Below are positions 13,866 through 40,830 of a stretch of DNA of 64,000 nucleotides, piece after piece. Below the pieces are notes generated by a model. It worked only from the letters and a program-made list of their open reading frames with translations, had not been told where the DNA came from and did no database searches. The stretch comes from an uncultured Solirubrobacterales bacterium. Lineage in GTDB: Bacteria; Actinomycetota; Thermoleophilia; Solirubrobacterales; Solirubrobacteraceae. Made by a program: the position numbers and the translations under genes. Position 1 is the first letter of the stretch, and each line of letters begins with the position of its first letter. Location: positions 38,118 to 102,117 of the forward strand of contig CAVOOV010000014.1 of the NCBI GenBank assembly GCA_963697655.1, written 5' to 3'.

Positions 13866-14858
13866 CTACTGGCGCGCGGCCAGCGACAGCGCGAACAGCT
13901 CGTCGGCGTCCGTGTACCAGGAGTCGAGCCGCAGGCCGGCGGCGTCGAAGTCCTCCTCGACACGTGCGCGCGTGAACTTCGCGCTGATCTCGGTCCGGAG
14001 CTCCTCGCCGGCGGCGAAGTCGACCCGCAGGCCGAGGTCTCCGACGAGTACGCTGCAGGCCCGCTGGGAGCGAAGGCGCATCTCGACCCACTCGTGTTTG
14101 CGGTCGAAGAACGCGATGTGGTCGAACCCTTCGGGCGCGAAGTCGGCGTCGAGCTCGCGGTTGATCACGTGCAGTACGTTGCGATTGAACTCGGCGGTGA
14201 CGCCCTCGGAGTCGTCGTAGGCGGCTTCGATCACCGGCGGGTCCTTGACCAGGTCGGTGCCGAGCAGGAGCCGGTCGTCGGGGCCGAGCAGTCTGCCGAT
14301 CTCGCGTAGCAGGCGCCGGCGCGTGCCGGGCAGGAAGTTTCCGATCGTGCCGCCGAGCAGGGCGACGATCCGCGGCGTCCCGTCGGCGTCCGGGACCTGG
14401 GAGAGATGGCGCTCGAAGTCGCCGATCACGCCGTGGACGGTGAGGCCGTCGAACTCGTCCACGAGCTCCTGGGCCGCCGCCTCGAGCGCGCTCTCGGACA
14501 CGTCGAGCGGGACGTAGCGGCGCAACGTTCCGGCTCGCGCCATCGCACTGAGCAGGATCCGCGCCTTCTCCGCCGAGCCCGAGCCGAGCTCGACGAGCTC
14601 GCCGGCGCGGGTCCGGCGGACGATCCCGTCGGCGCGCGCGAGCAGGATCTCGCGCTCGGCGCGAGTCGGGTAGTACTCGGGCAGCTCGCAGATCCGCTCG
14701 AACAGCTCCGAGCCGCGAGCGTCGTAGAAGTGCTTGGCCGGGATCTCCTTGAACGGGCGGGTCAGCCCGTCGAGCACGTCGTTGGCCAGCGAGCGCTCGT
14801 CGGTCTCCGACAGGAACGACTCGATCCTGATGTCGCCGCTCTGAGTCAGCGGCTTCAT
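13866..14858 (-). CDS. egtD: L-histidine N-alpha-trimethyltransferase
   Basis: [43 protein letters not shown]; start could be 14918. Confidence 0.95.
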
Positions 14859-14901
14859 GCGTCTCTCGCGATCCGGAAGCTGCGGCATCGGGCCACGAAC
14901 T

Positions 14902-16218
14902 TCATGTGTCTCTCGCAATTCTGATGCCGGAGAAGATCTGGCGTCGCTGCGGGTGGTCCCAGTTGCGGAAGGTGGGGGTGGCGACGCGGGTCCGCGTCGC
15001 CCACGAGCCGCCGCGGAGCACCCGATAGTCGCCTCCGAAGAACACCTCGGAGTACTCCCTGTACGGGTGCGCGACGAATCCGGAGTAGCCGTCGAACCGG
15101 CTGCTCGTCCACTCCCACGTGTCGCCGATCATCCCGAGGCAGCCATAGGGCGAGGCGCCGTCCGGGAAGCCGCCCGCGGGGGCGGTGCCGCAGCCGCGCT
15201 GGTCGAGGTTCGCGTGCACGCCGGCAACCGGGCGCCGGCTGCCCCACGGGTAGCGCCGGGCGTGCGGGCGGGCGGGGTCTGATATCTGGTCCCAGGTCGC
15301 CGCCTTCTCCCACTCGACCTCGGTGGGGAGACGGGCGCCGTGCGCGCGAGCAAAGGCGTCGGCCTCGAACCAGGACACGTGGACCACGGGCCGGTCGGGA
15401 TGGAGCGGCTCGAGCCCGCCGAGCCGCCACTCGGCACCTAGGTCCGGCGTCCAGGCGCCGGGTCGCGTGATGTCGTACTCCTCTTTCCAGGCCCAGCCCT
15501 CGTCGGTCCACCACTCGCGGCGCTCGTACCCGCCACCCTCGACGAACGTCAGGTAGCTCGCGTTGGTGATCGGGGTCCGCCCGATCAGGTAACCGCGCAC
15601 ATCGGTGCGGTGGCGCGGGCGCTCGTTGTCGTAGGCGAACCCGTCCGCGGCGGCGCCGATCGTGCACTCGCCGGCGGCGATCTCGAGCATGTCGAGCCCG
15701 GTGGGGACCGGCCGCAGCGAATCGGGCATCGGCCGGCGCCCAGCGAGCTCGTAGCCGTCAAGCCGCGCCAGCATCAACGTCTGCAACATCGTCTCGTCGT
15801 GCTGGTGCTCGTGGCCGAGCACCATCTCGTGCAGGACGCCGTCGCCCACGCCGCGCTCGTCGATCACCTCGAGCGTTCTGGCCCGAACCTCGTCGAGGTA
15901 CTCACGGGCCTCGGCCGGACGCAGCAGCGGAAGGTCACCCCGGACCGCGCGCGGAGTCTCGAAGGCGTCGTACATCGCCGCGAGGTCCTCGCGCAGAAGC
16001 GGCCGTTCGCCGTAGCGATGCACGAGCCACAAATCCTCGTAGGCGGCGATGTGCGCGAGGTCCCAGACCAGCGGGCTCATCAATTCGGAATGGACACGCT
16101 CGAGGTCGGCGTCCGACACCGATGAAACCAGCGCGAACGTCCGCCGGCGGGCCTCCTGAAGCGCTTCGACGGTTCGCGTCGCAGTCAGAGGCGCCGTGGC
16201 TGCGATCGAGGCGGTCAC
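14902..16218 (-). CDS. egtB: Ergothioneine sulfoxide synthase
   Basis: DinB domain (WDLAHI, HEHQHDETM) plus FGE-like domain (RLPTEVEWEKAA, RGGSW, FRNWD..QRRQIFSG); adjacent to egtD. Confidence 0.92.
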   Translation of the reverse strand: MTASIAATAPLTATRTVEALQEARRRTFALVSSVSDADLERVHSELMSPLVWDLAHIAAYEDLWLVHRYGERPLLREDLAAMYDAFETPRAVRGDLPLLRPAEAREYLDEVRARTLEVIDERGVGDGVLHEMVLGHEHQHDETMLQTLMLARLDGYELAGRRPMPDSLRPVPTGLDMLEIAAGECTIGAAADGFAYDNERPRHRTDVRGYLIGRTPITNASYLTFVEGGGYERREWWTDEGWAWKEEYDITRPGAWTPDLGAEWRLGGLEPLHPDRPVVHVSWFEADAFARAHGARLPTEVEWEKAATWDQISDPARPHARRYPWGSRRPVAGVHANLDQRGCGTAPAGGFPDGASPYGCLGMIGDTWEWTSSRFDGYSGFVAHPYREYSEVFFGGDYRVLRGGSWATRTRVATPTFRNWDHPQRRQIFSGIRIARDT

Positions 16219-27306: not shown

Positions 27307-30300
27307 CTACCCGACCGTGTAGCTGTAGGGGAGTGTCGCGAGCTCGTCGCCGCTCTGTTGGCCGGTGACCGGTGGCGGAACGTTGTTGTCGAAGTCATCG
27401 ACGTACAGGTTCCCCGAAACCACCGTGCCGCTGGCGGCACTCGGCGTGATCGTCACGTTGACTGTCGCGGTCTGCCCGGGATTGATCACCACCGGCGAGA
27501 ACGAGGTCGCCGGGTTGATCGAGGCCGCCTCGATGTCCCCGGTGGCCGAGGTCACCGCTGAGTCGAACGGCTTGGTCTGAGCCGTCATCGCCACTGACGC
27601 GGTGCCCGCGGGCGCGGGACCCGGATACGGGCCGCATTCGGACGGCGAGGCGAACCAGAACCCTGCGGTGACGAGGCCGCCCGGCGGTGTGTCGCTACCC
27701 GACGATGTGGTCGAGCAGAGTGATGCGGCCCCGGGGGCGTGGCTGGACAGATCCGGGTCGCCGGCGAACGGCCCGAAGTCGAACATCGTCGGCAGGCTCG
27801 ATGTCTGACTGACGCTGACGCTCGACGTCTGGGTCGGGACAAACCAGACCGGGCTCGCCCCGACGTTTGGCAGGACGATTCCGCTGGCCGGCGCAAACGG
27901 GGCGAGGGTTACCGACGTCGACCCGTTCAACCGTGGGTCGACGAAGTAGTCCTCCGGCGCGACTCCGGTGTTGGTGATCTGTACCGGCACGGTCACCGGC
28001 GTCCCCGCCGCGAGTTTCGTGGCCGCGCTGTTTGGTAGCCCGGCCGCGCTGACCTTCGACGGCGTTGAAGCGGATGTCTCCGGTGTACGGCTCGGAGATC
28101 TCGTTCCCCACGACCGGCTCGGAGAAGTCGACGACGAGCGTCCACGTGCCGGGAGCCGGGTTCACAGCGTTGGCGGTGAGTGCCGTCAGCGAGGTGCCGT
28201 TGAGCGAGTTCTGCCCGTACCCGAGCGTGTCCCCGTCGGGGCTGATCAGGTACGCCCCGATCGGATCGGTCGGATCGTTGGCGATCGACACGTCCGCGCT
28301 GATGTCGCGGACTCCGGCGGGCACGTTGAACTCGTAGTACTGCTGCTGGCCCTCACCGTTCGGGCGACCGTTGCCACCGGTCAGCACGCCCGAGAAGGAA
28401 CCCGAACGCTTGTTGCCGGGCTCGACCAGGCTGCGCAGCGTCACCGGAATCGAGGTCGATCCGCCGAAGCCGAAGTCCGACCTCAGCACGATCGAGCCCG
28501 CCGCGTCGCCCGGGGACGACGGGGTGGTGGCGCTGACCGTCACCGTCCGGCTCTGGCCGGGAGCCAGCAACAGCCGGCTCGGGGACACGGACGCGAACGG
28601 CACGAACTGCTCGGTGGCCATGCGCCAGGGGACAGCTCCGTTGGTTCCGGCGTCGGCGGCTACGTCGCCGAAAATCACTCCGGTCCACGTACCGGAGGTC
28701 GGGAAGCGGACGTCGACGCTGCCGAAGTTGCCGGGTCCCTGCGGCAGCGAGTGCGCCGCCAACCGGCCGCGCGGATCGATCAGGATCAGCCGCACGCGCG
28801 AGTTGTTCCCGTTCGCCGGGTTCCCCGGCCAGGCGAGCTGACCGGCCAACCTGTCGGCCCCGGGCCGGACGTTGAAGTGGAACACCCCGTAGTTGTTCTG
28901 GAGTCCCTGGTAGTTGGCGAACTGCGGGCTCGTGCCGTCGGTCAACGTGACGCTGCCGGTCTGGACGTTCTGGTCTGAGCCGAATGTCCGGCCGCTCAGG
29001 TTCACGAGCTGCAAATGCCGGCCCGTATTGGTGACGTTGACGTTCCAGCGCTCACGCGACCCGGGGCCGTCTACCGCGTTCAGCTGATTGGCCGAGGTCA
29101 GCAGCGTGTTGCCGGTCGGCCTGGGGGAGCCGTCCGGCGTGCGGATCGACTCGGCCAGCTGAACGGCCTTGTAGGAGTTCATGAGTCCCGCGCCCTGCTC
29201 CGCGGCGGGTGTGCCGAGGTCGGTGGCGGTGCTCACGATGATCTGCTTGACCAGGGCCGGGGTCGGCGTGGCGCCCCCGTGGGTCTGACGATAGGCCTGG
29301 ATGACCAGAGCCGCCTCGCCGGCGACGAACGGCGAGGACTCGCTGGTACCACCGCTCTCCTCGATGTCCGACGACTGGCCCTTGAGGTTGATGCACCCAG
29401 CGAAGATGGCGCTGGCGTCGCAGGAGGCGAAGCTGAGGTCGCCCGGAGCGACCAGGCTCACGGTGCCACCGGTCTCGTTGAACCCACCGGAGCTGAGCGA
29501 GCTGATGTTGTCGTTCAACCAGCCGCTGGTGGCGAAGTAGCGAGCGGCGGCGTAGTTCGTCTGGGCGTAGAAGCGGAAGTCGGTTGACGCGCCCACCGAG
29601 ATGAGGTTCGGGTCCGTCGAGGGCGAGCCGATCGTGTTGAAGTTGCCGGCATCGCCGGAGGAGACGCTGACCACGACGCCCGCCGCGACGGCGGCGTTGT
29701 CGAACTGCGCGGTGGCATCGAGCGCGCTCACGTCGGGGAACGGGTTCGAGCCGAAGGACTCGTTGATCACGTTGACGTGGTCGGTCTCGACCGCGTAGTT
29801 GATCGCCTGCAGGAAGTTGGAATTCGTGGTGTCCTCGAATGAGCCGAACACGTCCAGGCCGACGAGGCTCGCGCCCGGAGCAACGCCCTCGATGCGGATG
29901 TTGCAGGCCGACGGATCCGGCTGGGCGCTGAACCCGTTGACGTCGTACGTGTGGAGCCCCTGGCCGGCGATCGTGTTGGCGTCGAGGAACGCCTCGTCGC
30001 CGCTGGTGACCTGACCGGGGCCGTCGCCGGTGAAGTCCTGGTAGTCGCTGAACGCCGACGCGTTGTTGGGCCGGATGAAGTTGACGTTGTTCGGATCGAT
30101 GCCGTCGGCGATCCAGGCGACCTTCACGCCGGCGCCGGTGATGCCGAGCGATCGGGCGGTCGGCTGGCGCGGGTTGTCGGAGTCGGTGTTGGTGAGCGAC
30201 AGGCCTTCCGGATCAAGTTGTGGCTTGCCGGCGGAGCAGGCGCCCGGGATCACGTTGGGCGTGAGCGTCGTTGCCTGGTGCGACTTCAGCTTGTGAGAGG

Positions 30301-30766
30301 AAGCGGTTGGCACCTGGGCCGGCGCCGCGCCCTGAATCGTGACGTCGGGGATGACCTCGGCCACCGCGGGATTTGCCCTGAGCCTTGCCGCCTCACCCTT
30401 CGAGACCGCGGCCGCGAACGCGTCGACGAGCTGGAACGTCTTGATGTGCGTGGCGTGGACCGCACGCAGCTCGCTGATCAGTGGCGCCTGGGTGGCCTCG
30501 ATCGCGTCGGCGCGCCGCGCCGCCGCACTACTCCCGACGTGGGCAGCCGCGGGCTGGCTCTTCAGGATCACGATCACGTGCTGATTGGCGTTCTGCGAGA
30601 GCCGCCTCGCCAGCGCCGGCGTCAGCGGCCCGGAGGTGGCTGTGGGGGCGGCCGCCACCGACTGCGCCCCGATCGCGGCCGGCACCCCGACCGCCATCGC
30701 CAGCAAGGCGATCGTCTTCTTTCGTGCACACGCCAGCCGTACGACACCCGCAACACGTGATCGCAT
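27307..30766 (-). CDS. Large secreted subtilase-clan protease (I9-like prodomain, S8/S53 catalytic domain, beta-sandwich tail); frameshift near 28060
   Basis: Signal peptide, [34 protein letters not shown]; C-terminus continues in ORF 27307..27996. Confidence 0.88.
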
Positions 30767-30930
30767 ACCTTGGACCCTCCTCCAGTGGTGACTGCTGCTA
30801 CCGCCGCGCCACACACAGCTCCCCCGAGTGGGCAGCACGGCCGATGTTCCGCGAACCTACCACCTGCCAGGGGCGGACGACCGCGTCGTTCACTTCAGTT
30901 GTTGAAGCATTGCGCTAAACTGGGCAAAAG

Positions 30931-31317: not shown

Positions 31318-31764
31318 ATGCGGATCGCGGTCGCCGCGGATGAGCTGACAGGCGTCGCGCGGGCGCTCCCCGAGGAGCTTCGCCGGCGCGGTCACGAGCC
31401 GTTGCTCCACGGCGCCTACGCGGACGCAGAGCGGCCCGACTGGGCGTGGGCGAGCGAGGCTGCGGCCCGGGACGTCGCCGACGGCAGGGCCGAGCAGGCG
31501 ATCGTCGCGTGCTGGACCGGAACCGGCGCGTCGATCGCGGCGAACAAGGTGCCGGGGATCCGCGCCGCGCTGTGCGCCGACGCGCCGACCGCGGAGGGCG
31601 CGCGCCGGTGGAACGACGCCAACGTGCTCGCGCTCAGCCTGCGGGCAACCTCTCAAGCCGAGCTCGAGGAGATCCTCGACGCCTGGTTCGGGGGCAGCTC
31701 GAGCGCCGAGCCCGACGACGTCCAGAACATCGCGCATCTGGCCGAGATCGAGCGCTCGCCCTAG
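31318..31764 (+). CDS. RpiB/LacA/LacB sugar-phosphate isomerase
   Basis: CWTGTG, ANKVPGIRAA, WNDANVL. Confidence 0.92.
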   Translation: MRIAVAADELTGVARALPEELRRRGHEPLLHGAYADAERPDWAWASEAAARDVADGRAEQAIVACWTGTGASIAANKVPGIRAALCADAPTAEGARRWNDANVLALSLRATSQAELEEILDAWFGGSSSAEPDDVQNIAHLAEIERSP

Positions 31765-31777
31765 CGGCGACGCGGCC

Positions 31778-32880
31778 TCAGCGCACGACGACGAACGTGC
31801 CGGACCCGATCATGTGGCCGTAGCGGCCGGCCTTGCGCCGTCCGAAGCCGGGCCAGACGTACCATCGGTACTTGCCGGGCTTGAGCCGGTAGCGACGTCC
31901 CTCGAATTTCCATGTGCGGCGAAGCTGGAGGCCGGCGTGCGTCGGCCACATGCTGAGCACCTTGCCGCCCCGGAACAACTGCACGTTGTAGTAGGTAGCG
32001 CTCGGGGCGGCGGTCCAGCTCAGCATCGGTGGCGCGCTCAGGTGCGCGTTCGGCGCGGGGCCGAGAAGTCGCGGTCCGGGGGTTGCCTTGATCGTCTGCG
32101 CCGCCACGTTGCCCGCCTGATCGCGCGCAGTGATCGTGTACGTGTAGTGGACGCCGTTGCTCACGTGGTCATCCGTAAATCCGGTTCCGTTGCCGGAATA
32201 GACGGCGTGGGCGCTGGCAGCCTTCGCGCCGTCGGTCCGAGTGACTTGGATCGAGGCGAGCGGAGCGACGTCCCCGCCGGCTTGCCAGCTCAGCGCGACG
32301 CTCTTGTCGCCCGGATCCGCGGTGGCGGTCAGCGTTGGCGGCGTCGCGTCGTAGGCGAACGGCGCGCTAGCGACAGTCACGGACTTGCCTGCGTTGTCGA
32401 CGCAGGTCCCGGCCACGGTGGCGCTGGCCGTGGCGGGGCCGGCGTATGTCGTGGAGGTGCACGACGCGATGCCGGAGAATGAGCTGCCCTGGAACGCGAA
32501 GGCGACCGGGGCGTCGTACCAGCCGTTGGAGTCGGGAGGGCGGGACGGGGTCGCGGTGGCGGTGGGGGAGGAGGTTTCGACCTTGATTGTGTACGGCTGA
32601 ATGATGGTTGGACCGGCAGTCGGTCCAGTGACTTCGCACGGACACCGTTACGATTGGTATTGGATGCGTACGTCGTCTGGATGCAGCTTCCTGGAGTGGT
32701 TCGGCGGTCCATGTGCCAGCTGAGGTTCACAGGCGCCGTGTACCAACCGCCGGTGCATGGCTGTGCGGCCGCCTGGCCAACTGCGCACATGGGCGTGATG
32801 GTGTCCGCCGACGCCACCGACGCCGTCGTCAACGACACCGCGACGGCGACCAGTGCCACCGCCACCGCACGACGCCTCAT
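31778..32880 (-). CDS. Secreted beta-sandwich (Fn3/Ig-like) protein; frameshifts near 32610-32710
   Basis: Signal peptide, repeated GWY motif, Fn3-like LSW...YTYTITARDQAGN. Confidence 0.7.
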
Positions 32881-33554
32881 GACAGCTCCAGTCGTCGGAG
32901 ACGCCGCAGCAACGCGAGGCTCGCCACCGCGAGTACCGCCATCGCGAGCGAGGTGAGCAGGAGGAGCACACCGCCGCGATGCCCGGTCTCACCGCTGTGA
33001 AGCGCCCGATCGGGCAGCAGCAGCAAGTCCTTGGGCCAGGACAGGGGGAACGACAACCGCGTGGCTCCCGATCGCGCGCGACGCGGAGCGGAAGTGCGAG
33101 CGGCATGAACGTGCGGACGCGACGTGGGTCGTCCCGACCGCGCGCGCGGCGTCCTCGACGCAACGATCTTTGCTGCGGGTGTGCTGACCGTCCTCGCCGG
33201 CGTAACGACAACCGGCGCGCGGATCGCCGGCGCAACGACCGCGGGTACGCGGATCGCCGGCGTGGTGGAGGTCGACCGATGCGGCGCGGGCGCGGTGGTC
33301 GTGGCCTGCGGGGCGGGGTCCGGCGTTGGCTGACTCGCTGAGCCGGACGTCGGCGCCCTCTGGGGGGCGGGCCCGGAACCGTGTTCCCGAGTCGCAGCTG
33401 CCGCGCCGGCAGCGGCCGGCCAGCTCGAGGCGACAAGGACGAGAATCACCGTCCCGCAGATGCGGGCAATGATGCGAGCGGCCCAAGAAACAGCGTCCGA
33501 CTGCCCCCGGCGCCGCCGCCCGCCCCACGAACGGATAAGCAACGGGCCTTCCAT
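32877..33554 (-). CDS. Pro/Ala/Thr-rich exported protein with C-terminal TM anchor
   Basis: N-terminal hydrophobic segment; C-terminal hydrophobic helix followed by RRLRR; 4-bp overlap with the next gene. Confidence 0.6.
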   Translation of the reverse strand: MEGPLLIRSWGGRRRRGQSDAVSWAARIIARICGTVILVLVASSWPAAAGAAAATREHGSGPAPQRAPTSGSASQPTPDPAPQATTTAPAPHRSTSTTPAIRVPAVVAPAIRAPVVVTPARTVSTPAAKIVASRTPRARSGRPTSRPHVHAARTSAPRRARSGATRLSFPLSWPKDLLLLPDRALHSGETGHRGGVLLLLTSLAMAVLAVASLALLRRLRRLELS

Positions 33555-33605
33555 CTTCTACGTATCGCTAGCTAAACCGCACCATACGCCGCATGCCTCT
33601 CTAAA

Positions 33606-35393
33606 TCAACGCTCCGACCTGCCTGCTGTTTGCGTCCACATCACCGTCAGTGCCACCAACACTGCCGCCGCGACGAGCAGCAGCGCCATCGCTGCAGGGT
33701 CACTCGACGCGCGAGGGCCGTCCGCGCGTGCCTCGGCCACTCGTATCGGGGGGTGCCCCTGGAGTCCGGTCGCCGCCTGCCGCGACCGGCGCCGGCTCGA
33801 CTTGACGACGGATTCGATCGAGGGATGAACGGCCGCCGTCGACGTTCTCGACGTCTGCGCCCACGCGAGCGCCAAGGTCGCTTCCCGGACCGGCGCTGCC
33901 GGCGCGACCGGCGCGACCGGCGCGATCAGGCCGGACACGGTGGCTCCCGCAAAGGCAGCCGTGCTGAACAGCCGAATGCGCCGCGTGGGCGATCCATTGG
34001 GCTCCGGCGGCCCTGGCACGGTCTGCGACGCGGATCTGGTCGAGGACGGTTGCCCGGCGATCGGTCCCGTCTGCTGAGCCGGCGCGGTAGGGCCGGGCGC
34101 GGGCGGTGTCGGGGGTGGCGCTGGTGAACCCGCAGGTGCGGGGCTCTCGTCGACGATCACCGTGCTCTGCCCGGTGACGACCTGCGTCTGGGTCGCGTCG
34201 TAGCACCAGGCGACGCAGCCGACCTGCACCTGCCAGATGATCTGATCGGTCACGTCGACGGCGCCGGGATTCGAGCCGGTCGCGCCGGCCTGTACGTTGA
34301 TGATCGTGATCGATTGCTGCGCTTGCTGGACCTGCTGGGTGTCGACGCAGTAGAAGACGCAGCCGATCTGAAGCTGCCATGTGCCCTGCTGCGCTTCGGC
34401 GACGGACTGAGGCGTGGGTGGTTGCGACACTGTTGCGTCATCCGTGACCTGGACGGTGGTGGCGCTTTGGGAGGCGACCTCAGTCTGCGTCGCGATCGCC
34501 TGAGCGGCCTGAACCTGACACGCCACTTGATCGACGATGCCCTCCACGGTTGCCGCCGTCGGCTGCATGGTCGACGAGCCGCAAGCCGGCTGCGACGCGT
34601 CGAGGTTCTGGAGTAGCTGCGTGAGCGCGGCCGCGGACGGATCGGTCGTGGTCGTGCCGAAGCATTCTGTAACGCAGCCGATCTGGATCTGCGTCACGCT
34701 GCTCGTCACCTGCGACGAGGACTTCGGCGACGGCGCCGTGTCGAGGGCGGTCGCCGACTGCAACGCCGTCCCCGCAACCTGCACGGTGACGCTTTCCTGG
34801 ATGGCCACCTGAACCTGGCTGACGTGCTGGCAGTGCGACGTACAGCCTGAAATCTGCACCTGCGAAATCGACTGGCTGGTGGTGGTCGACTCGACCGGCG
34901 CGGGGGGCGGCGTGGTTCCCGCCGGCGGCATGCCGGGGTTCGGCAGAGCTGGAGGTGTCTGACCGGGCGGGTCCGAGGGTGGGGTTGGGGTCGGCGCCGG
35001 CTGGCCCGGTGTGGTGGGCGGCGCGGCGGGGTTGGATGGTGGCGTCGTCTGGTCGGGTGGTGGCGGCGTCTGGTCGGGCGAAGCCGCGGCGGTGGGGATC
35101 GGCGGCGGGGTCACCGGCAGGGCCGGCGGCGAAGTCGCGTCGGTCGGCGCCGGGGGTGGCACGACCGCCGTGCCGGCGGCCTCAGGCGGGGAGGTTGCCG
35201 TCGGCTGCGATCCGGGGCCGTTGTCGCTCGTCGAGGCGGGCGGAGCCCCAGCCTGACTCGGGGTGCCTGCCGTCGCCGGCGAGGTGCCGACCGCGAGGGG
35301 GGCCTGATCCGCGCGCGCATGAGCCGCCGCGGCTAGCGCCACGACGATCGTGGTCAGGACCAGTCCGAGCTTTGCCGTGTTGAGGGATCGCAT
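33606..35393 (-). CDS. Secreted, membrane-anchored protein with Pro-rich stalks and four Q-rich GCxxxC repeats
   Basis: Signal peptide ending AHARA; QVQISGCTSHC, QIQIGCVTEC, QLQIGCVFYC, QVQVGCVAWC; C-terminal TM. Confidence 0.8.
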   Translation of the reverse strand: MRSLNTAKLGLVLTTIVVALAAAAHARADQAPLAVGTSPATAGTPSQAGAPPASTSDNGPGSQPTATSPPEAAGTAVVPPPAPTDATSPPALPVTPPPIPTAAASPDQTPPPPDQTTPPSNPAAPPTTPGQPAPTPTPPSDPPGQTPPALPNPGMPPAGTTPPPAPVESTTTSQSISQVQISGCTSHCQHVSQVQVAIQESVTVQVAGTALQSATALDTAPSPKSSSQVTSSVTQIQIGCVTECFGTTTTDPSAAALTQLLQNLDASQPACGSSTMQPTAATVEGIVDQVACQVQAAQAIATQTEVASQSATTVQVTDDATVSQPPTPQSVAEAQQGTWQLQIGCVFYCVDTQQVQQAQQSITIINVQAGATGSNPGAVDVTDQIIWQVQVGCVAWCYDATQTQVVTGQSTVIVDESPAPAGSPAPPPTPPAPGPTAPAQQTGPIAGQPSSTRSASQTVPGPPEPNGSPTRRIRLFSTAAFAGATVSGLIAPVAPVAPAAPVREATLALAWAQTSRTSTAAVHPSIESVVKSSRRRSRQAATGLQGHPPIRVAEARADGPRASSDPAAMALLLVAAAVLVALTVMWTQTAGRSER

Positions 35394-35495
35394 TGGGTGT
35401 CTCAGCGGGGGCCCGGCCGGCGCGTATCTGGCGCCGGCCGGGGCCGCGGTTTCTGCGCTCGAGACCAACGCGTCACCGTTGGCGGAGCGCCTCTA

Positions 35496-37208
35496 TTAGG
35501 TGCTGGTCTGGGTCTGCGTTCCGTTCTGCGTGGTGTTCGCGTTGTTGCCGGCGAAGCTGAGTGCGCCGTTGAGCGCGAACTGGTTGGCGCTGTTCGAGCC
35601 GCCCGAGATATTCCCGGCGGCGATGTTGACCGGGACGTTGGCGTTGACCGCGGTCTGGTTTGCGTTGGCGCACGAAGCCGCCAATTGACCAGTGAGCGCC
35701 TCCTGATCGCTCAGCTGCGCTTGACCGGCCCCGCCGCAGCCCCACTGGCAGCTGGAGCCGGCGGTTTGGGCCTGGGTGTTGTTTTGCGTGGTGTTGGCGT
35801 TGTTGCCGGCGCCGCTGGCAGCTCCGTTGATCGCGCCCTGGTTGGCGCTGTTGGAGCCGCCCGAGATGTCACCGGCGGCGATGTTGACCGGGACGTTCGC
35901 GTTGACCGCGGTCTGGTTGGCGTTGGCTGTCGAGAACGCTCCCTGGAGCGTCGCCGCGCTCTGACCCGAGGCCTGGAACTGGCCCGCACCGCCGCAGCCG
36001 ACCTGGCAGTTGGAGCCGGCCGTCTGCGTCTGGGTGTTGTTCTGGGTCGTGCCGGCGTTGTTGCCGGCACCGCTCAGCGCGCCGTTGCCGGCGAGCTGGT
36101 TGGCGCTGTTGTTACCGCCGGAGACGTTCCCGGCGGCGATGTTGACCGGGACATTCGCGTTGACCACGGTCTGGTTGGCGTTCGCCGAGGATCCCGCGAG
36201 CTGACCGGTCACCGCCTGCTGCCCGCTCAGTTGGGCTTGACCGGCCCCGCCGCAGCCCCACTGGCAGCTGGAATTGGCGGTTTGGGTCTGGGTGTTGTTC
36301 TGGGTGGTGTTGGCGTTGTTGCCGGCGCTGCTCAGCGCGCCGTTGCCGGCGAGCTGGTTGGCGCTGTTGGTGCCGCCCGAAACGTTGCCGCCGGCAATGT
36401 TCACCGGAACGTTGGCGTTCACCGCGGTCTGGTTGGCGTTCGCCCCCGACAGCGCTCCCTGGAGCGTCGCCGCGCTCTGACCGGCCGCCTGGGCCTGGCC
36501 GGAGCCGCCGCAGCCGACCTGGCAGTTGGAGCCGGCCGTCTGCGTCTGGGTGTTGTTCTGGGTGGTGCCAGCGTTGTTGCCGGCGCCGCTCAGCGCACCG
36601 TTGCCGGCACCCTGGTTGGCGCTGTTGCTGCCGCCTGACGCATCGCCGCCCGACGGGCTGCCGCCGGTGGTGCTCGGCGCATTGCCGTTGACGGCCGTCT
36701 GGTTGGCGTTCGCCGATGATCCGGCCAGCTGGCCGGTCACGGACTTCTGGCTGCTCCCTTGTGCCTGTCCAGGTCCGCCTCCACCGATCGCTGCACCGGC
36801 GCTGGCGGTCTGGGTCTGGGTGTTGTTCTGGGTCGTGTTGGCGTTGTTGCCCGCGCCGCTGACCGCTCCGTTGATCGCGCCCTGATTGGCGCTGCTGGAG
36901 CCGCCCGTGGGCGTGCCGCCCATGGGCCCACCCATCGGCTTTCCGCCCATCGGCGTGCCGCAGCCACACGGCTTGCCACCGCCTGAGGGCTGACCGCCGG
37001 CGACGCTCACCGGCGCGTTCGAGTTGGTGGCAGTCTGCTGGGCGTTCGCGCTCGAGAGCGCACCCTGCAGCGTTGTCGCGGCCTGACCCGCGAACTGTGC
37101 TTGACCGAGGCCACCGGCCCCGGCGCTGCCTCCACCGTCAGCCATCGCCTGCGCCGGTATGGCGAGCGCGACGATGCTGACGGCGGCAGCGATCAATTTC
37201 GATCTCAT
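35496..37208 (-). CDS. Secreted N/Q/G/A-rich repeat protein (six ~86-aa repeats), candidate functional amyloid subunit
   Basis: AAGGAG RBS, Sec signal ending AMA, 258-bp DNA periodicity. Confidence 0.88.
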   Translation of the reverse strand: MRSKLIAAAVSIVALAIPAQAMADGGGSAGAGGLGQAQFAGQAATTLQGALSSANAQQTATNSNAPVSVAGGQPSGGGKPCGCGTPMGGKPMGGPMGGTPTGGSSSANQGAINGAVSGAGNNANTTQNNTQTQTASAGAAIGGGGPGQAQGSSQKSVTGQLAGSSANANQTAVNGNAPSTTGGSPSGGDASGGSNSANQGAGNGALSGAGNNAGTTQNNTQTQTAGSNCQVGCGGSGQAQAAGQSAATLQGALSGANANQTAVNANVPVNIAGGNVSGGTNSANQLAGNGALSSAGNNANTTQNNTQTQTANSSCQWGCGGAGQAQLSGQQAVTGQLAGSSANANQTVVNANVPVNIAAGNVSGGNNSANQLAGNGALSGAGNNAGTTQNNTQTQTAGSNCQVGCGGAGQFQASGQSAATLQGAFSTANANQTAVNANVPVNIAAGDISGGSNSANQGAINGAASGAGNNANTTQNNTQAQTAGSSCQWGCGGAGQAQLSDQEALTGQLAASCANANQTAVNANVPVNIAAGNISGGSNSANQFALNGALSFAGNNANTTQNGTQTQTST

Positions 37209-37358
37209 GCTGCTTCGTTCTCCTTGGTTGAGGTGGATCGCCGCGCTCGCACTGCTCACTGAGCAGCGGCGATGACCTGGCCGAGCCCGCTAAGTCGAGA
37301 GGGACTCGGTGACGACCGCCTCACGTCGGCGACCGTCGCTTGCACCGACCCAGCGGCG

Positions 37359-38321
37359 CTAACCAGGCCGTTCCAACCTCGAGACGAGGAACGCCGATCG
37401 CGCTGGGGCAAGCCCCAGGCCTAAGAGCCCCGGCAACAAGGCTCGAAGAATGCACAGGCCGCCGAAAGCGAGGAGAGCCGCGGCGGCCGCGCCCGCTCCT
37501 CCGCCTCCGGCGCCCGCGGCGCTGCCCTCCGCTCCGCCTGGCGGCAGGGCTGGCGAGAGTGGGACTGCCAGCGGCGCCGTCGTCACCGCGACGCCCGGAC
37601 GGGATCGACGCGGGTCGAGATGACGTCGGCGCCCGGGTTCGCTGCGCGAGTCCGCGCGACGAGCCGGCACAGCCGGCTGCGTGCCGCGCCGGCTCGTCGC
37701 CACGAGCACCAGCACTGGCGACCACGGGCGGGCGACGGCGGAGTGCGCGACGGGAGCGCGCCCTGTCGATCCCGCCGGCCGAGCCGACGTTGCGACTGGG
37801 CGATGAGCTCGTGGATGCGCGAAGCGATGGGCGCGCGTCCGGCCTCGTGGCGTCCGGTCGGACCGGGCCGTGCGCGACGTGGTCGATTCGGTGCCGACAG
37901 CCTGCCCCGCGTCCGGCTGGGGCACGGGCCCCGCGAGCGCGCTCACCGACTGCTCCACGGCCCCGGCAGTCGAAGGCGCCGGCGCCGCGGGTGCGGGGTT
38001 TTCCGGCGCGGGCTGTGGGGTGGGCCGAGCCACGACGGGCACGGGCGGCACCGCGGGCGGCGCCACCACAGGCGCCGCCGGCGGCGAGCCAGGCTGGGCT
38101 CCTCCAGATGCTCCGGCGCCGCTCGCCGACGGGATTTGAGCGAGCGCCGCGGACACGGCGCTCTGCGCTGGCGCGGGAACCAGGGCAGCGAGCTGGCTCA
38201 GCGCGGCGGAGCCGGGACTGGCGGCCTCCGCCCCGGTCGGCACGATCAGCGCAAGCGTGAGAAGCGCCGTCGCGAGCGCCCCCAACAAGCCCCAAGACTT
38301 TCGAATCAGATGATCAGCCAT
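37359..38321 (-). CDS. Pro/Ala-rich exported protein with C-terminal hydrophobic segment, ends LERPG
   Basis: Signal peptide ending AEA; low-complexity body. Confidence 0.65.
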   Translation of the reverse strand: MADHLIRKSWGLLGALATALLTLALIVPTGAEAASPGSAALSQLAALVPAPAQSAVSAALAQIPSASGAGASGGAQPGSPPAAPVVAPPAVPPVPVVARPTPQPAPENPAPAAPAPSTAGAVEQSVSALAGPVPQPDAGQAVGTESTTSRTARSDRTPRGRTRAHRFAHPRAHRPVATSARPAGSTGRAPVAHSAVARPWSPVLVLVATSRRGTQPAVPARRADSRSEPGRRRHLDPRRSRPGVAVTTAPLAVPLSPALPPGGAEGSAAGAGGGGAGAAAAALLAFGGLCILRALLPGLLGLGLAPARSAFLVSRLERPG

Positions 38322-38445
38322 GATCAGCTTCTGCTGGTTAATGTCTCGCCGACGCCCAGATCCGATCCAAGAAACCCTGGGTATCACTCGTTATCTCTGT
38401 ACCTTCCTCGGTGATATCGGTCGCAGAAGGGGCACGGCGACATCG

Positions 38446-39516
38446 GTGAAAAAGCTCATTTCCCGGCGGGCGGCAGCGCCGCCAGAGGGCTCGAACGGTC
38501 CGGGTCTTCCCGACGCCGAGAAGGACGCGATGGTGCGCTCGCACCTCCCGCTGGTGCGGGCGATCGCACGGCGCTACGCGGGCCGGGGAGAGGAGCTCGA
38601 TGACCTGGTCCAGGCCGGCTCGGTCGGGCTGGTCAGGGCGTCAGCCCGCTTCGACCCGGGCCGTGGCGTCGCCTTCGCGACGTTCGTGGGACCTGCCGTC
38701 GAAGGTGCGATCCGGCGGCATCTGAGCAAGCGCCGAGGTGGCGTGCAGCTGCCGCCCAAGGCGCAGTGGACGAGCGCGGACTCGCCCGTGCTCGAGGCGA
38801 GCGACGCAGCCGTTGACGGGTCGCGCGAGCCCAAGTCTCTCGTCGAGAGCGAGCACCGCATGCTGCTCGCAGGGGGTTTCCGCGCGCTGGATGAACGGGA
38901 GCGTCAGATCGTGTTTCTCCGCTTCAACGCCGACATGACCGAGCGTCAGATCGCGACGGCTGTCGGCATCTCGCAGGCACACGTCTCGCGACTACTCGAC
39001 GGCGCCCTGACCAAGCTCCGGGCCGAGCTCAGCTCGGCGGACTCCGTAAAGGGGGCTGATACCACGAAATCTCAAGCGATATCACGCCCCAAAGCGCCGG
39101 AAATTGCGAGGACAGAGACTAGAATCGAGGGCGTGGGCGCAGAGAAGGAGAGCGTGGGCGCGCAACCGGACAAGGCCACGCGACATGGCAACGGTCGGTC
39201 TCCGAAGACGAGCTACAGCGGCCGGTTCCTCGTTCGGATGCCGAGCGAGCTTCACGAGCAGCTCACGCTTGCTGCCGAGCGCGACGAGATCAGCCTCAAC
39301 CGGTACGTAACCGACGCGCTCTCGACCTCCGTCGGCGTGGCCTCATCGGACCGAGCGAACTCCCCACCCGGAGCACCTGGCGCCGCAGACTCGGCCAAGG
39401 ACCGGAGAGCGACCCGGACGCTCAGGATGGCCCTCGCGACGAACGTCGCGCTCGTGATCGTTGCGGCCGTTATCGCCCTCGTGCTGCTGGTGCTCGCGTT
39501 GCAGCGCGGGATCTGA
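38446..39516 (+). CDS. Alternative sigma-70 factor (regions 2 and 4) fused to a HicB-like RHH domain and C-terminal TM
   Basis: HLPLVRAIARRY, DLVQAG..GL, LDERERQIVFLRF, ISQAHVSRLL; YSGRFLVRMPSELH...SLN; terminal hydrophobic helix. Confidence 0.88.
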   Translation: MKKLISRRAAAPPEGSNGPGLPDAEKDAMVRSHLPLVRAIARRYAGRGEELDDLVQAGSVGLVRASARFDPGRGVAFATFVGPAVEGAIRRHLSKRRGGVQLPPKAQWTSADSPVLEASDAAVDGSREPKSLVESEHRMLLAGGFRALDERERQIVFLRFNADMTERQIATAVGISQAHVSRLLDGALTKLRAELSSADSVKGADTTKSQAISRPKAPEIARTETRIEGVGAEKESVGAQPDKATRHGNGRSPKTSYSGRFLVRMPSELHEQLTLAAERDEISLNRYVTDALSTSVGVASSDRANSPPGAPGAADSAKDRRATRTLRMALATNVALVIVAAVIALVLLVLALQRGI

Positions 39517-39579: not shown

Positions 39580-40830
39580 GTGCGCAACGGAACGCTCCAC
39601 GGGGTAATCGAGGCGTTCGCGACGGAGGCGGCGATGGTGCTATGCGCCGAGACCGCATCCGGCGCGGAGGTCCCGTTCGAGCTGGTCGACGCGGCCGGCG
39701 GTCCCCGTGGCCGTGTCCCCCTGTACTGCTACCGGCCGCTGACCGATCCGTTCATCCGCGAGCGGCTCGGGTTGCTCTCAGGGCTACCCACCTACGCCCC
39801 TGCGGTGCGTGCGGTGAGCAGCCTCGAGGGCGTCGACGCGTACCTGCGCCAGCGCGGGGAATCGCGCGTCCCGTCCGAGCGGCGCGAATGCGCCGACGCC
39901 GCGCTGCGCACGTTCCTGTCCGTGCTGTACGACGAACGCAGCGAGTTCTCGTTCGACCCCGATCGGTTTGAAGTCGCCTACGACGAGCTCGAGCAGGCGC
40001 TGTACGAGGGTCGCGCGGTGACGACGGTCGTGGCGCCGCTGCTGGGGATCGCGCTCGACACCGAGACGACTGAGATCGCGCTCGGCGAGGGACTCGCGCT
40101 CGTCCGAGGTGACGCGCTCGACGACGCGCCGCCCGACGCGGTCTGGGGCGACGCCGAGGAGCCTCACGTGCTCGCGGTGCTGACCGTGGCCCAGGATCGG
40201 GCTGCGCCGGCGCCGGTGTCGGTTGCGCGCGTCCGCTTTCGGCGCACACTGACCGCGCTGCGGTTGTTCGAGCGCGGCGGGTTCGCGCTCGGCCCGGTGG
40301 CGTGGACGCGGATCGATGCCGGAAGCTGGCGCTCGGTGCCGCTCGGCGGCAGCGGCCGGCCGCGCCTGACCCGACATATACCGGCCGCGCAGGAGGACGA
40401 GCTGCGGGCGTTCTGCAACCTGGTGGCGCGGCGCACCCCGAGGGGCGGGGAGACAGCGTGGGCCCTGGCCCGGTTCGAGATGGGCTGCGAGCGCCTGGCG
40501 CCGTTCGAGGCGCTGACCGACTATCTGCTGGCGCTGAGGGCGCTGCTGGAGCCCGAGGGCCCCGCGAGCGGCCGCCTGGCCGGCCGTCTGGCCGCGATCT
40601 GCGCCCGGCCCGAGGACCGGGCAGCGGTAGCCGAGCGCACGGCGCATGCGATCTCGCTCGAGCGGGCGGTGATCGCCGGCCTCGCCCCGGCACAGACCGG
40701 CGTCGACGCGCTCGTCGAGGAGCTCGCCGAGCAGCTGCGGGCGCTGCTCAGAGATGTCCTGTGCGGCCACCTCGAGCCCGACCTGTGCTCGGTCGCCGAC
40801 GACCTGCTGGCGGCGCCTTCACCGCTTTAG
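39580..40830 (+). CDS. Conserved hypothetical protein with an Apea-like HEPN-type C-terminus
   Basis: Strong coding bias; LTDYLLALRALLE...LAGRLAA helix pattern; no RxxxxH motif. Confidence 0.7.
   Translation: MRNGTLHGVIEAFATEAAMVLCAETASGAEVPFELVDAAGGPRGRVPLYCYRPLTDPFIRERLGLLSGLPTYAPAVRAVSSLEGVDAYLRQRGESRVPSERRECADAALRTFLSVLYDERSEFSFDPDRFEVAYDELEQALYEGRAVTTVVAPLLGIALDTETTEIALGEGLALVRGDALDDAPPDAVWGDAEEPHVLAVLTVAQDRAAPAPVSVARVRFRRTLTALRLFERGGFALGPVAWTRIDAGSWRSVPLGGSGRPRLTRHIPAAQEDELRAFCNLVARRTPRGGETAWALARFEMGCERLAPFEALTDYLLALRALLEPEGPASGRLAGRLAAICARPEDRAAVAERTAHAISLERAVIAGLAPAQTGVDALVEELAEQLRALLRDVLCGHLEPDLCSVADDLLAAPSPL

Follow-up and report, generated by a model that had tools for sequence, protein, structure and literature searches.

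A candidate giant-rung beta-solenoid protein and its gene cluster in Solirubrobacterales

Introduction

To our knowledge, bacterial functional amyloids come from a handful of families, namely curli, Fap, TasA, chaplins and a few others. Operationally, a functional amyloid is recognised by cross-beta fibres with a reflection at 4.7-4.8 Å, binding of ThT or Congo red, and resistance to SDS or formic acid. The rungs of the known ones are built of ~20-40 residues, and the curlin repeat, which is of the type Sx5QxGxGNxAx3Q, has ~20 amino acids. We searched the literature on Solirubrobacterales or Thermoleophilia for amyloid and found nothing. Here we describe a repeat-protein gene in a 64,000-nucleotide stretch of DNA from an uncultured Solirubrobacterales bacterium (the window, meaning the whole stretch analysed). 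We propose that its product is a Sec-exported, giant-rung polar cross-beta solenoid subunit that probably polymerises, a reading based on structure prediction that we hold with about as much belief as doubt. We know of no described precedent for the assembly logic and rung size proposed here.

Gene and repeat organization

The repeat-protein gene occupies 35496..37208 on the minus strand. It encodes 570 amino acids, with the stop codon at 35496-35498. The longest minus-strand frame in the list of open reading frames (ORFs) spans 35496-37259. We placed the true start at the ATG at 37208, because a well-spaced AAGGAG lies ~10 nt upstream of it and a canonical signal peptide begins there. With this start, the coordinates given in an earlier note on this DNA agree exactly. 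The Sec signal peptide, as read from the sequence, comprises residues 1-23 (37140..37208, minus strand). It ends in AQAMA before DGGG, where the cleavage site is predicted at the AxA, and is the same in ~40 orthologues. The 547 mature residues contain four Asp, one Glu, three Lys, and no Arg or His, which amounts to 8 charged residues (1.5%) and bears out the near absence of charge that the earlier note had remarked on. Asn and Gln together make up 25% of the mature protein, Gly 19%, Ala 18%, Ser and Thr together 20%, and hydrophobic residues 11%.

Tandem Repeats Finder returned a 258-bp period with 4.3 copies and a score of 1257, and a DNA repeat search located six copies at spacings of 258, 258, 258, 270, and 336 bp. 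The corresponding protein repeats are 112, 90, 86, 86, 86, and 76 amino acids long. Hence, of the earlier description as six repeats of 86 residues, the number stands while the exact length applies to three repeats only. All six lie on the minus strand, and the first two have Gly/Pro-rich insertions in the turn. Repeat 1 (residues 35-146; 36771..37106) is degenerate, its VPVNI turn being replaced by an insertion that includes CGC (mature residues 49-71). Repeat 2 (residues 147-236; 36501..36770) has a degenerate turn and ends in the first CxxGC linker (C229, C233). Repeat 3 (residues 237-322; 36243..36500) and repeat 5 (residues 409-494; 35727..35984) are of the TLQGA type and end in CQWGC, whereas repeat 4 (residues 323-408; 35985..36242) is of the TGQLA type and ends in CQVGC. 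Repeat 6 (residues 495-570; 35499..35726), also of the TGQLA type, has neither a linker nor a C-terminal cap.

Both alternations described in the earlier note are present. TLQGA occurs in the odd and TGQLA in the even repeats, and the four linkers read CQVGC at residue 229, CQWGC at 315, CQVGC at 401, and CQWGC at 487 (numbering of the 570-residue protein), with none between repeats 1 and 2. The higher-order period of 516 bp is real yet modest: repeat copies at this spacing are 82% identical, compared with 71-77% at 258 bp. Odd and even repeats differ consistently at three positions and at the Val/Trp of the linker only. In orthologues of 60-90% identity from other species, the Leu alternation (TLQGA/TGQLA) is kept repeat by repeat, and the Val/Trp alternation of the linker is not. 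The conserved Leu alternation indicates that the repeats are old and individually orthologous rather than recently homogenised.

An unnamed repeat family with one conserved face

A set of 5.8 billion proteins contains more than 430 homologues, down to an E value of 1e-189, nearly all of which are annotated as hypothetical and come from soil metagenomes. They form 190 clusters at 50% identity, and relatives of the gene are found in the genomes of 162 species. The best 80 genome matches include 79 from Solirubrobacterales, Thermoleophilaceae, Gaiellaceae, or unclassified Actinomycetota metagenome-assembled genomes (MAGs). The exception, a 9.5-kb contig labelled Opitutaceae (L007, DATJUU010000081.1), carries the same cluster at 79% identity. 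As its synteny is identical, it is probably a mis-binned Solirubrobacterales contig. Sequence searches for the repeat protein in Pfam, NCBIfam, and PDB, including those with a 50-sequence family profile, gave no match. The Pfam scans covered the whole protein at E<=1, and one repeat, two repeats, and three homologues at E<=10; neither the single repeats nor the homologues matched a family at the latter threshold. Matches of homologues to EB1_binding, SMYLE_N, and RAP80_UIM were rejected as compositional noise. Curlin_rpt (PF07012) was matched neither by the whole protein nor by the repeats and three homologues at these thresholds, and a genome-wide search found none, while its E. coli control matched. 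There was likewise no match to ChpA-C (PF03777) at E<=10; its genome-wide search was also empty, but the control of that search was uninformative.

The unit period is 86-88 amino acids across 620 units, and the lengths of homologues step by whole repeats (~457, 545, 633, 720, 806, and 862 amino acids). A signal peptide followed by 4-10 units with a QNAVNANVPV..AGG core and CxxGCGG linkers characterises the family, and these features are found here. As judged from its sequence, the repeat protein belongs to a large unnamed Thermoleophilia family with repeats of 86-88 amino acids. Low charge (1-4%) is common to the closer Solirubrobacterales orthologues, whereas distant members have 12-30% charged residues; most homologues have 10-20%, all on the outer face. 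In the aligned homologues, the near absence of charge is thus a trait of one sub-clade and not of the whole family.

We aligned ~400 units to inspect conservation along the unit. Two long segments have a strict i/i+2 alternation. The even positions 12-38 and the odd positions 53-81 are occupied by Gln, Gly, Ala, Thr, Ser, or Asn, and are charged in 0-1% of cases. Specifically, Q12, Q16, T20, Q22, Q32, N36, N38, Q57, N69, T73, Q75, and Q81 are invariant or near-invariant, and so are some Ala and Pro positions. The intervening positions, which would point outward, are variable, 25-86% charged, and occasionally aromatic. The tip between the two segments holds the only conserved hydrophobic residues of the unit, V35, V39, P40, V41, V/I43, and I/V48. 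A Gly/Ser stretch and a C-x-x-G-C-G-G motif, which is 100% conserved, follow the second segment. In total, ~30 residues per repeat are invariant in a position-specific manner across hundreds of species. Since every repeat has its invariant Gln, Asn, and Thr residues at identical positions, N/Q/T ladders would arise if the rungs are stacked.

In three homologues of the charged sub-family (P0005, P0007, and P0083; 633 and 545 amino acids), the variable face becomes rich in Trp, Phe, and Tyr over the last three to four repeats. These residues recur at the same unit positions, e.g. as QW after the SSAN segment and as EQW in strand 1. If the rungs are stacked, they would line up as aromatic ladders, which may form a surface for binding or lateral association.

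The gene is single-copy in its own MAG (6.07 Mb, 89% complete). It was found in 19 of 80 other genomes sampled from the genus, using the protein itself as query, and in 5 of 200 other genomes sampled from the order, using the family profile. We rejected the idea that the low yield in the order is an artefact of search sensitivity. Both searches concur on the three genomes that were sampled twice, which argues that the patchiness is real. Because of this patchy distribution, the gene is, as far as these searches reach, an accessory trait. Carriers within the genus mostly have genomes of ~4.1-7.0 Mb (most >5 Mb), and many non-carriers have 2.3-4.5 Mb. Since the relatives are not independent, this contrast gives no more than a hint of a larger set of accessory genes that would include the cluster.

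Predicted fold

A model of the repeat protein was built by AlphaFold2 (AF2) with a 50-sequence alignment. It has a predicted local distance difference test (pLDDT) score of 77.4 and a predicted template modelling score of 0.62. In the model, every repeat contributes two strands of 29-33 residues, twelve in all, and each tip has a short strand. The insertion of repeat 1 and the linkers have pLDDT below 50. The first strand begins at mature residue 12 and the last one extends to residue 545 of 546, leaving no cap at either end. Judging from the strand length, we estimate that a rung would be ~10 nm wide and the monomer ~3 nm tall.

An exhaustive VIA-align search with this model returned solenoids only among its matches. 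The top ones are the flattened two-sheet beta-helices of SufB, SufD, and SMS, with Z scores of 8.5, 8.1, 7.8, and 7.3 and a root mean square deviation of ~3.1 Å over 174-183 residues. The superposition of this type covers model residues 13-539 and involves ~29 residues of each of the six repeats. CsgA of Pontibacter was matched with a Z score of 8.3 (7.7 Å, 141 residues aligned), and the E. coli CsgA fibril with 6.4. The flat antifreeze solenoid RiAFP scored 6.5, and MpAFP and LpIBP 4.2-4.8. Further neighbours are TPS, RTX, and pectate-lyase-type helices. As a contiguous parallel beta-helix superposes sequentially on all six repeats, the model points to a six-rung solenoid rather than an antiparallel meander. 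At the level of prediction, the protein shows the constant repeats and stacked ladders of the beta-solenoid class, a reading subject to the solenoid bias of AF2 (PMC11795689). The artefactual AF2 solenoids of Pratt et al. have buried charges (PMC11795689), whereas the predicted core of the repeat protein has none.

Co-variation within the repeat unit

Mutual information with average product correction was calculated from 663 distinct repeat units (effective number of sequences, 140). The strongest non-trivial couplings are between positions 14 and 77, 30 and 61, and 26 and 65, and also between 34 and 59. The coupled positions are the few variable sites of the conserved face and follow an antiparallel register of i+j=91. 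Their residues compensate for each other in volume: 14-77 is occupied by G-Q, S-N, or V,L,I-A, and 34-59 by A-A or G-L. Outward-facing pairs in the same register are uncoupled, though they are far more variable. The co-variation fits two strands that would lie face to face through the conserved face, as the model proposes.

Assembly model and alternative explanations

In our model, the repeat protein would be a structural protein that is exported by Sec and folds outside the cell as a six-rung, flattened two-sheet beta-solenoid. One ~86-residue repeat would make up one rung: the chain would run along a strand of ~29 residues, turn at a conserved hydrophobic tip (NANVPVNIAGGN), come back along a strand of ~33 residues, and pass to the next rung through a Gly-rich connector with CxxGC. 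The two strands are expected to pack via their conserved uncharged face, with Ala, Ser, and Gly in the middle and Gln, Asn, and Thr near the ends. Stacking of the rungs would then produce N/Q/T ladders, and the core would be very thin and resemble silk. The outer face could vary freely: most relatives have charges there, and it is composed of Gly, Ala, Leu, Asn, and Thr in this sub-clade, in which the outer-face Leu would switch between two positions from rung to rung. Uncapped ends favour stacking, as is known from edge protection in beta-proteins. As neither end of the model is capped, the subunits would be expected to stack end to end, as CsgA does. Such head-to-tail stacking would most likely give a cross-beta ribbon or fibre, whose width we put at ~10 nm on the basis of the strand length. 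The invariance of the Cys pair in every linker is the one feature that suggests a disulfide staple, of the kind that regularly spaced Cys pairs form in each coil of, e.g., insect antifreeze beta-helices. Polymerisation, disulfides, the role of the partner protein described below, and regulation are the parts of the model that we infer.

The interpretation offered by the earlier note, a cross-beta solenoid with N/Q ladders and disulfide-stapled turns, is hence partly supported. The AF2 model, its solenoid neighbours, the conservation pattern, and the co-variation agree at the level of prediction with a beta-solenoid having N/Q ladders. The supposed echo of the chaplin motif in VPVNI was not borne out, since ChpA-C is not matched even at E<=10.

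Several observations weigh against the solenoid model. All of its structure is prediction, the topology being deduced from DSSP assignments and from which solved folds superpose. Three of the five AF2 models reach a pLDDT of only 57-63, and with repeat sequences AF2 is known to return confident beta-solenoids too often (PMC11795689). Foldseek of the model against PDB found nothing (best E value 0.73, template modelling score 0.04), and Z scores of ~8 are in a range common for models without true relatives. In the charged homologues, in-register stacking would pile up residues of like charge along the outer face. The two N-terminal rungs, whose tips are degenerate, could act as a soft cap. The co-variation signal lies partly between sub-families, as only 58 of 215 proteins have more than one pair state at 14-77 among their own repeats, and it is also compatible with an in-plane hairpin. 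Finally, since 19 of the 80 genomes sampled from the genus carry the gene, its product does not belong to the core envelope. An S-layer was likewise rated unlikely, the distribution being patchy.

The alternative that survives best keeps the same solenoid but not the polymer: the protein would act as a monomer or as a scaffold attached to the surface, and the CxxxC membrane protein of the cluster would hold it at the cell. We regard this as possible if distinctly improbable. Such a scaffold could serve as an adhesin, as a plate binding the wall or polysaccharides, or in binding ice or minerals via flat Thr/Asn arrays. In line with the latter, the outer face of strand 2 forms a regular Asn/Thr array in this sub-clade (unit positions 70-82), and the model matches the flat antifreeze solenoids with the Z scores given above. 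The aromatic residues that would stack on the outer face of the C-terminal rungs in some homologues resemble sugar-binding surfaces, and the degenerate N-terminal rungs could cap one end. However, it is the outer face that lacks conservation within the family, which makes a specific ligand surface unlikely as the common function. Moreover, the C-terminal end has no cap, and the repeat protein itself has no anchor motif.

A less probable alternative, which we consider unlikely, is that the solenoid is an artefact of AlphaFold and that the repeats are in-plane hairpins making up a 12-stranded antiparallel meander sheet. Its conserved small-residue face would pack on a second copy or another partner, giving a sheet-like layer. 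The bias of AF2 and the like-charge columns speak for this arrangement. A hairpin would also give the coupling register i+j=91, and the CxxxC elements of the partner lie between two strands in its model, like hairpin tips. On the other hand, the outward cross-strand pairs, which would touch in a hairpin and are more variable, are uncoupled. The turns are long (~17 and ~15 residues) with conserved Val/Pro/Val/Ile, and are more like beta-arcs than hairpin turns. The sequential superposition of the AF2 model on parallel beta-helices over all six repeats and its predicted core free of buried charge also disagree with the meander. A beta-barrel or porin was rejected, since the variable face is charged in most homologues and the neighbours of the model are solenoids rather than barrels.

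The composition of the repeat protein and the lack of a known domain would suit a disordered, low-complexity secreted gel or matrix filler rich in Gln, Asn, and Gly, with no defined fold. Nevertheless, the ~30 invariant residues per repeat, the fixed period of 86-88 amino acids, the two-residue alternation, the compensating substitutions, and the repeat-by-repeat orthology are not expected of such a sequence, and we consider disorder very unlikely. The least credible candidate is a divergent chaplin- or curlin-type protein truly homologous to a known functional amyloid family: VPVNI recalls chaplins, GNNAxxxQ-like segments recall curlin repeats, and CsgA is among the best structural matches, but the domain searches in the protein, its repeats, its homologues, and, with the stated limit of the chaplin control, the rest of the genome were negative, the family profile has no PDB sequence match, and the repeat is four times as long as that of curlin.

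The gene cluster

The synteny counts below cover 79 loci. The partner gene (P0002; 33606..35393, minus strand) lies directly downstream of the repeat gene. It starts at the Met at residue 26 of its longest frame (33606-35468). The encoded protein has a signal peptide, a Pro-rich stalk, a core of ~230 amino acids, a second Pro-rich stalk, and a C-terminal transmembrane helix. The core contains four QxQ(x)GCxxxC motifs, none of which varies among 34 sequences. In 65 of the 79 loci, the repeat gene is directly followed on the same strand by a gene with WQxQ[IV]GCxxxC motifs, and most loci without it are contigs that end before that position. The partner family comprises 99 proteins, all hypothetical, and its core matches no family in sequence searches of Pfam, NCBIfam, or PDB. 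The AF2 model of the core has a pLDDT of 71.5 and places each CxxxC between two strands of 14-17 residues. Its sole structural neighbours, CsgA, FapC, and SufD, are weak (Z scores of 2.5-3.1). The motif QxQxGCxxxC resembles the rung end of the repeat protein (QxQ...CxxGC), which makes the partner a plausible anchor or template. Being putatively membrane-anchored, it is the likeliest candidate in the cluster for that role. Public partner calls (P0275-P0298) are mostly 390-455 amino acids long, which suggests that they start after the first Pro-rich stalk and lose the conserved signal peptide (MRSLNTAKLG...). Database entries thus probably have a wrongly called N-terminus.

The sigma factor gene (38320..39516) is divergent, on the plus strand. 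Its product has regions 2 and 4 of the SigB/F/G type, a HicB/ribbon-helix-helix-like domain, and a C-terminal transmembrane helix. The Pfam matches are Sigma70_r2 (3.8e-19), Sigma70_r4 (4.3e-12), and HicB (3.2e-13), and the NCBIfam match is SigBFG (3e-38, below its cut-off). The gene is found divergent and upstream in 68 of the 79 loci, and no anti-sigma gene adjoins it. This sigma factor, which appears to be tethered to the membrane, is the likeliest regulator of the cluster.

The gene upstream of the repeat gene (P0003; 37359..38387, minus strand) is probably the first gene of the operon. It encodes a low-complexity protein rich in Pro, Ala, and Arg, with an N-terminal signal or transmembrane segment and a C-terminal hydrophobic segment. 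By tblastn it was detected in only 9 close loci. The stretch separating it from the repeat gene contains no conserved promoter. A promoter and terminator scan of 31500-39000 found no sigma-70-like promoter, and the lone terminator-like site is inside a gene on the wrong strand. When the 260 nt upstream of the repeat gene were aligned in 43 loci, conservation was confined to the ribosome-binding site and the last part of the upstream gene, and no promoter motif was seen.

Two further genes on the minus strand complete the cluster. The first, at 32877..33554 in the same operon, encodes a Pro/Thr-rich protein of 225 amino acids with two transmembrane segments. It was found by tblastn in 6 close loci only, and the closest locus (L010) has an intact homologue. 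The second (31778..32880), with which the cluster ends, encodes a secreted protein with an immunoglobulin-like domain and is split into the overlapping frames 32377-32880 and 31778-32416. In L010 it is a single ORF of 372 amino acids (14217-15335), and the split is either a frameshift or a MAG assembly error. The C-terminal part occurs in 60 of the 79 loci with 48-87% identity and has a weak match to Big_13. No family match was obtained for the low-complexity neighbours in sequence searches of Pfam, NCBIfam, or PDB.

Positions 34001-38000, which cover both low-complexity genes, have an AT skew of -0.24 to -0.25 compared with ~0 elsewhere. This skew is the footprint of Gln/Asn/Ala/Thr/Pro codon usage on the minus strand. 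Beside the cluster, a plus-strand gene at 39580-40830 encodes a protein of 416 amino acids with no Pfam match. It is highly conserved, being 70-95% identical in 37 loci and shared by 29 of 31 relatives with identities of 36-86%, and looks like an uncharacterised housekeeping-type gene. A secreted subtilase of 1047 amino acids (Peptidase_S8 with an Inhibitor_I9 propeptide) is encoded on the minus strand at 27695-30838, a few kb downstream of the cluster. By tblastn, it is near the cluster in 12 of the 79 loci, on either strand.

A possible functional-amyloid-type system

More tentatively, the cluster as a whole might be a new functional-amyloid-type system of soil Thermoleophilia, in which rungs of 86-88 amino acids, nanoribbons, Cys locking, and a sigma switch would all act together; we think this joint proposal possible rather than probable. 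The nanoribbons would be ~10 nm wide and ~1 nm thick, and would grow on a membrane-anchored template carrying matching QxQxGCxxxC elements. The invariant Cys pairs might lock rungs, and possibly subunits, by disulfide exchange, and the dedicated membrane-tethered sigma factor would switch the whole system on.

If the predicted fold proves right, the cross-beta solenoid design would be extended to rungs four times wider, having a silk-like Ala/Ser/Gly core flanked by Gln/Asn ladders, with invariant Cys pairs. It would also be the first candidate surface-fibre system for Thermoleophilia, an abundant and almost unstudied soil class, and would include a putative anchor and a putative regulator. 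Flat protein nanomaterials could be modelled on the nearly charge-free variant, which would be an attractive template from nature. As neither Pfam nor NCBIfam has a model of the family, its members are annotated only as 'hypothetical protein'.

Comparison with known systems

The best geometric match to the repeat protein is the group of SufD, SufB, and archaeal SMS proteins (PDB 1vh4, 5awf, 9h78, and 4dn7), which have two parallel sheets and two strands per turn. They are cytoplasmic iron-sulfur assembly proteins with helical flanking domains and have no sequence similarity to the repeat protein. The match is architectural only, with ~29 of the 86 residues per rung superposing. RiAFP (PDB 6xnr) and the other flat ice-binding solenoids resemble the model in that their beta-sandwich solenoid is very thin, their core is made of small residues, and their flat faces are rich in Thr and Asn. 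RiAFP differs in being much smaller and in having a conserved functional face, whereas the outer face of the repeat protein is variable.

Among the amyloid formers, the Streptomyces chaplins, which form surface amyloid, are likewise actinobacterial, Sec-secreted, and Cys-containing. Their domains are ~55 amino acids long and hydrophobic, while the repeat protein is polar, has six repeats of nominally 86 amino acids, and has a different Cys pattern. FapC of Pseudomonas (PDB 9u4u) is also a secreted imperfect-repeat protein rich in Gln, Asn, Ala, Ser, Thr, and Gly, whose repeats are stacked, and it is a weak structural neighbour of the partner model (Z score of 3.1). It differs in having no sequence relationship to the repeat protein, another rung topology, and a dedicated outer-membrane secretion operon.

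Compared with CsgA (PDB 8enq from E. coli and 8c50 from Pontibacter korlensis), the repeat protein shows no sequence relationship. Its rungs have 86-88 residues rather than ~19-23, its predicted core is mainly Ala/Ser/Gly, and its connectors carry the invariant CxxGC. The host is of the Gram-positive type, and the partner is membrane-anchored with Pro-rich stalks. No csgE/F/G-type genes are present in the cluster, in which every operon ORF was annotated and none gave a Csg-family Pfam match. The two proteins nevertheless share secretion and imperfect repeats. The predicted likeness extends to a flattened two-sheet solenoid of strand-turn-strand rungs, to Gln/Asn ladders, and to uncapped ends, and a second protein with related motifs is encoded alongside, as CsgB is to CsgA. 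The repeat protein is thus curli-like in its predicted architecture and lies outside the curlin and chaplin families by sequence.

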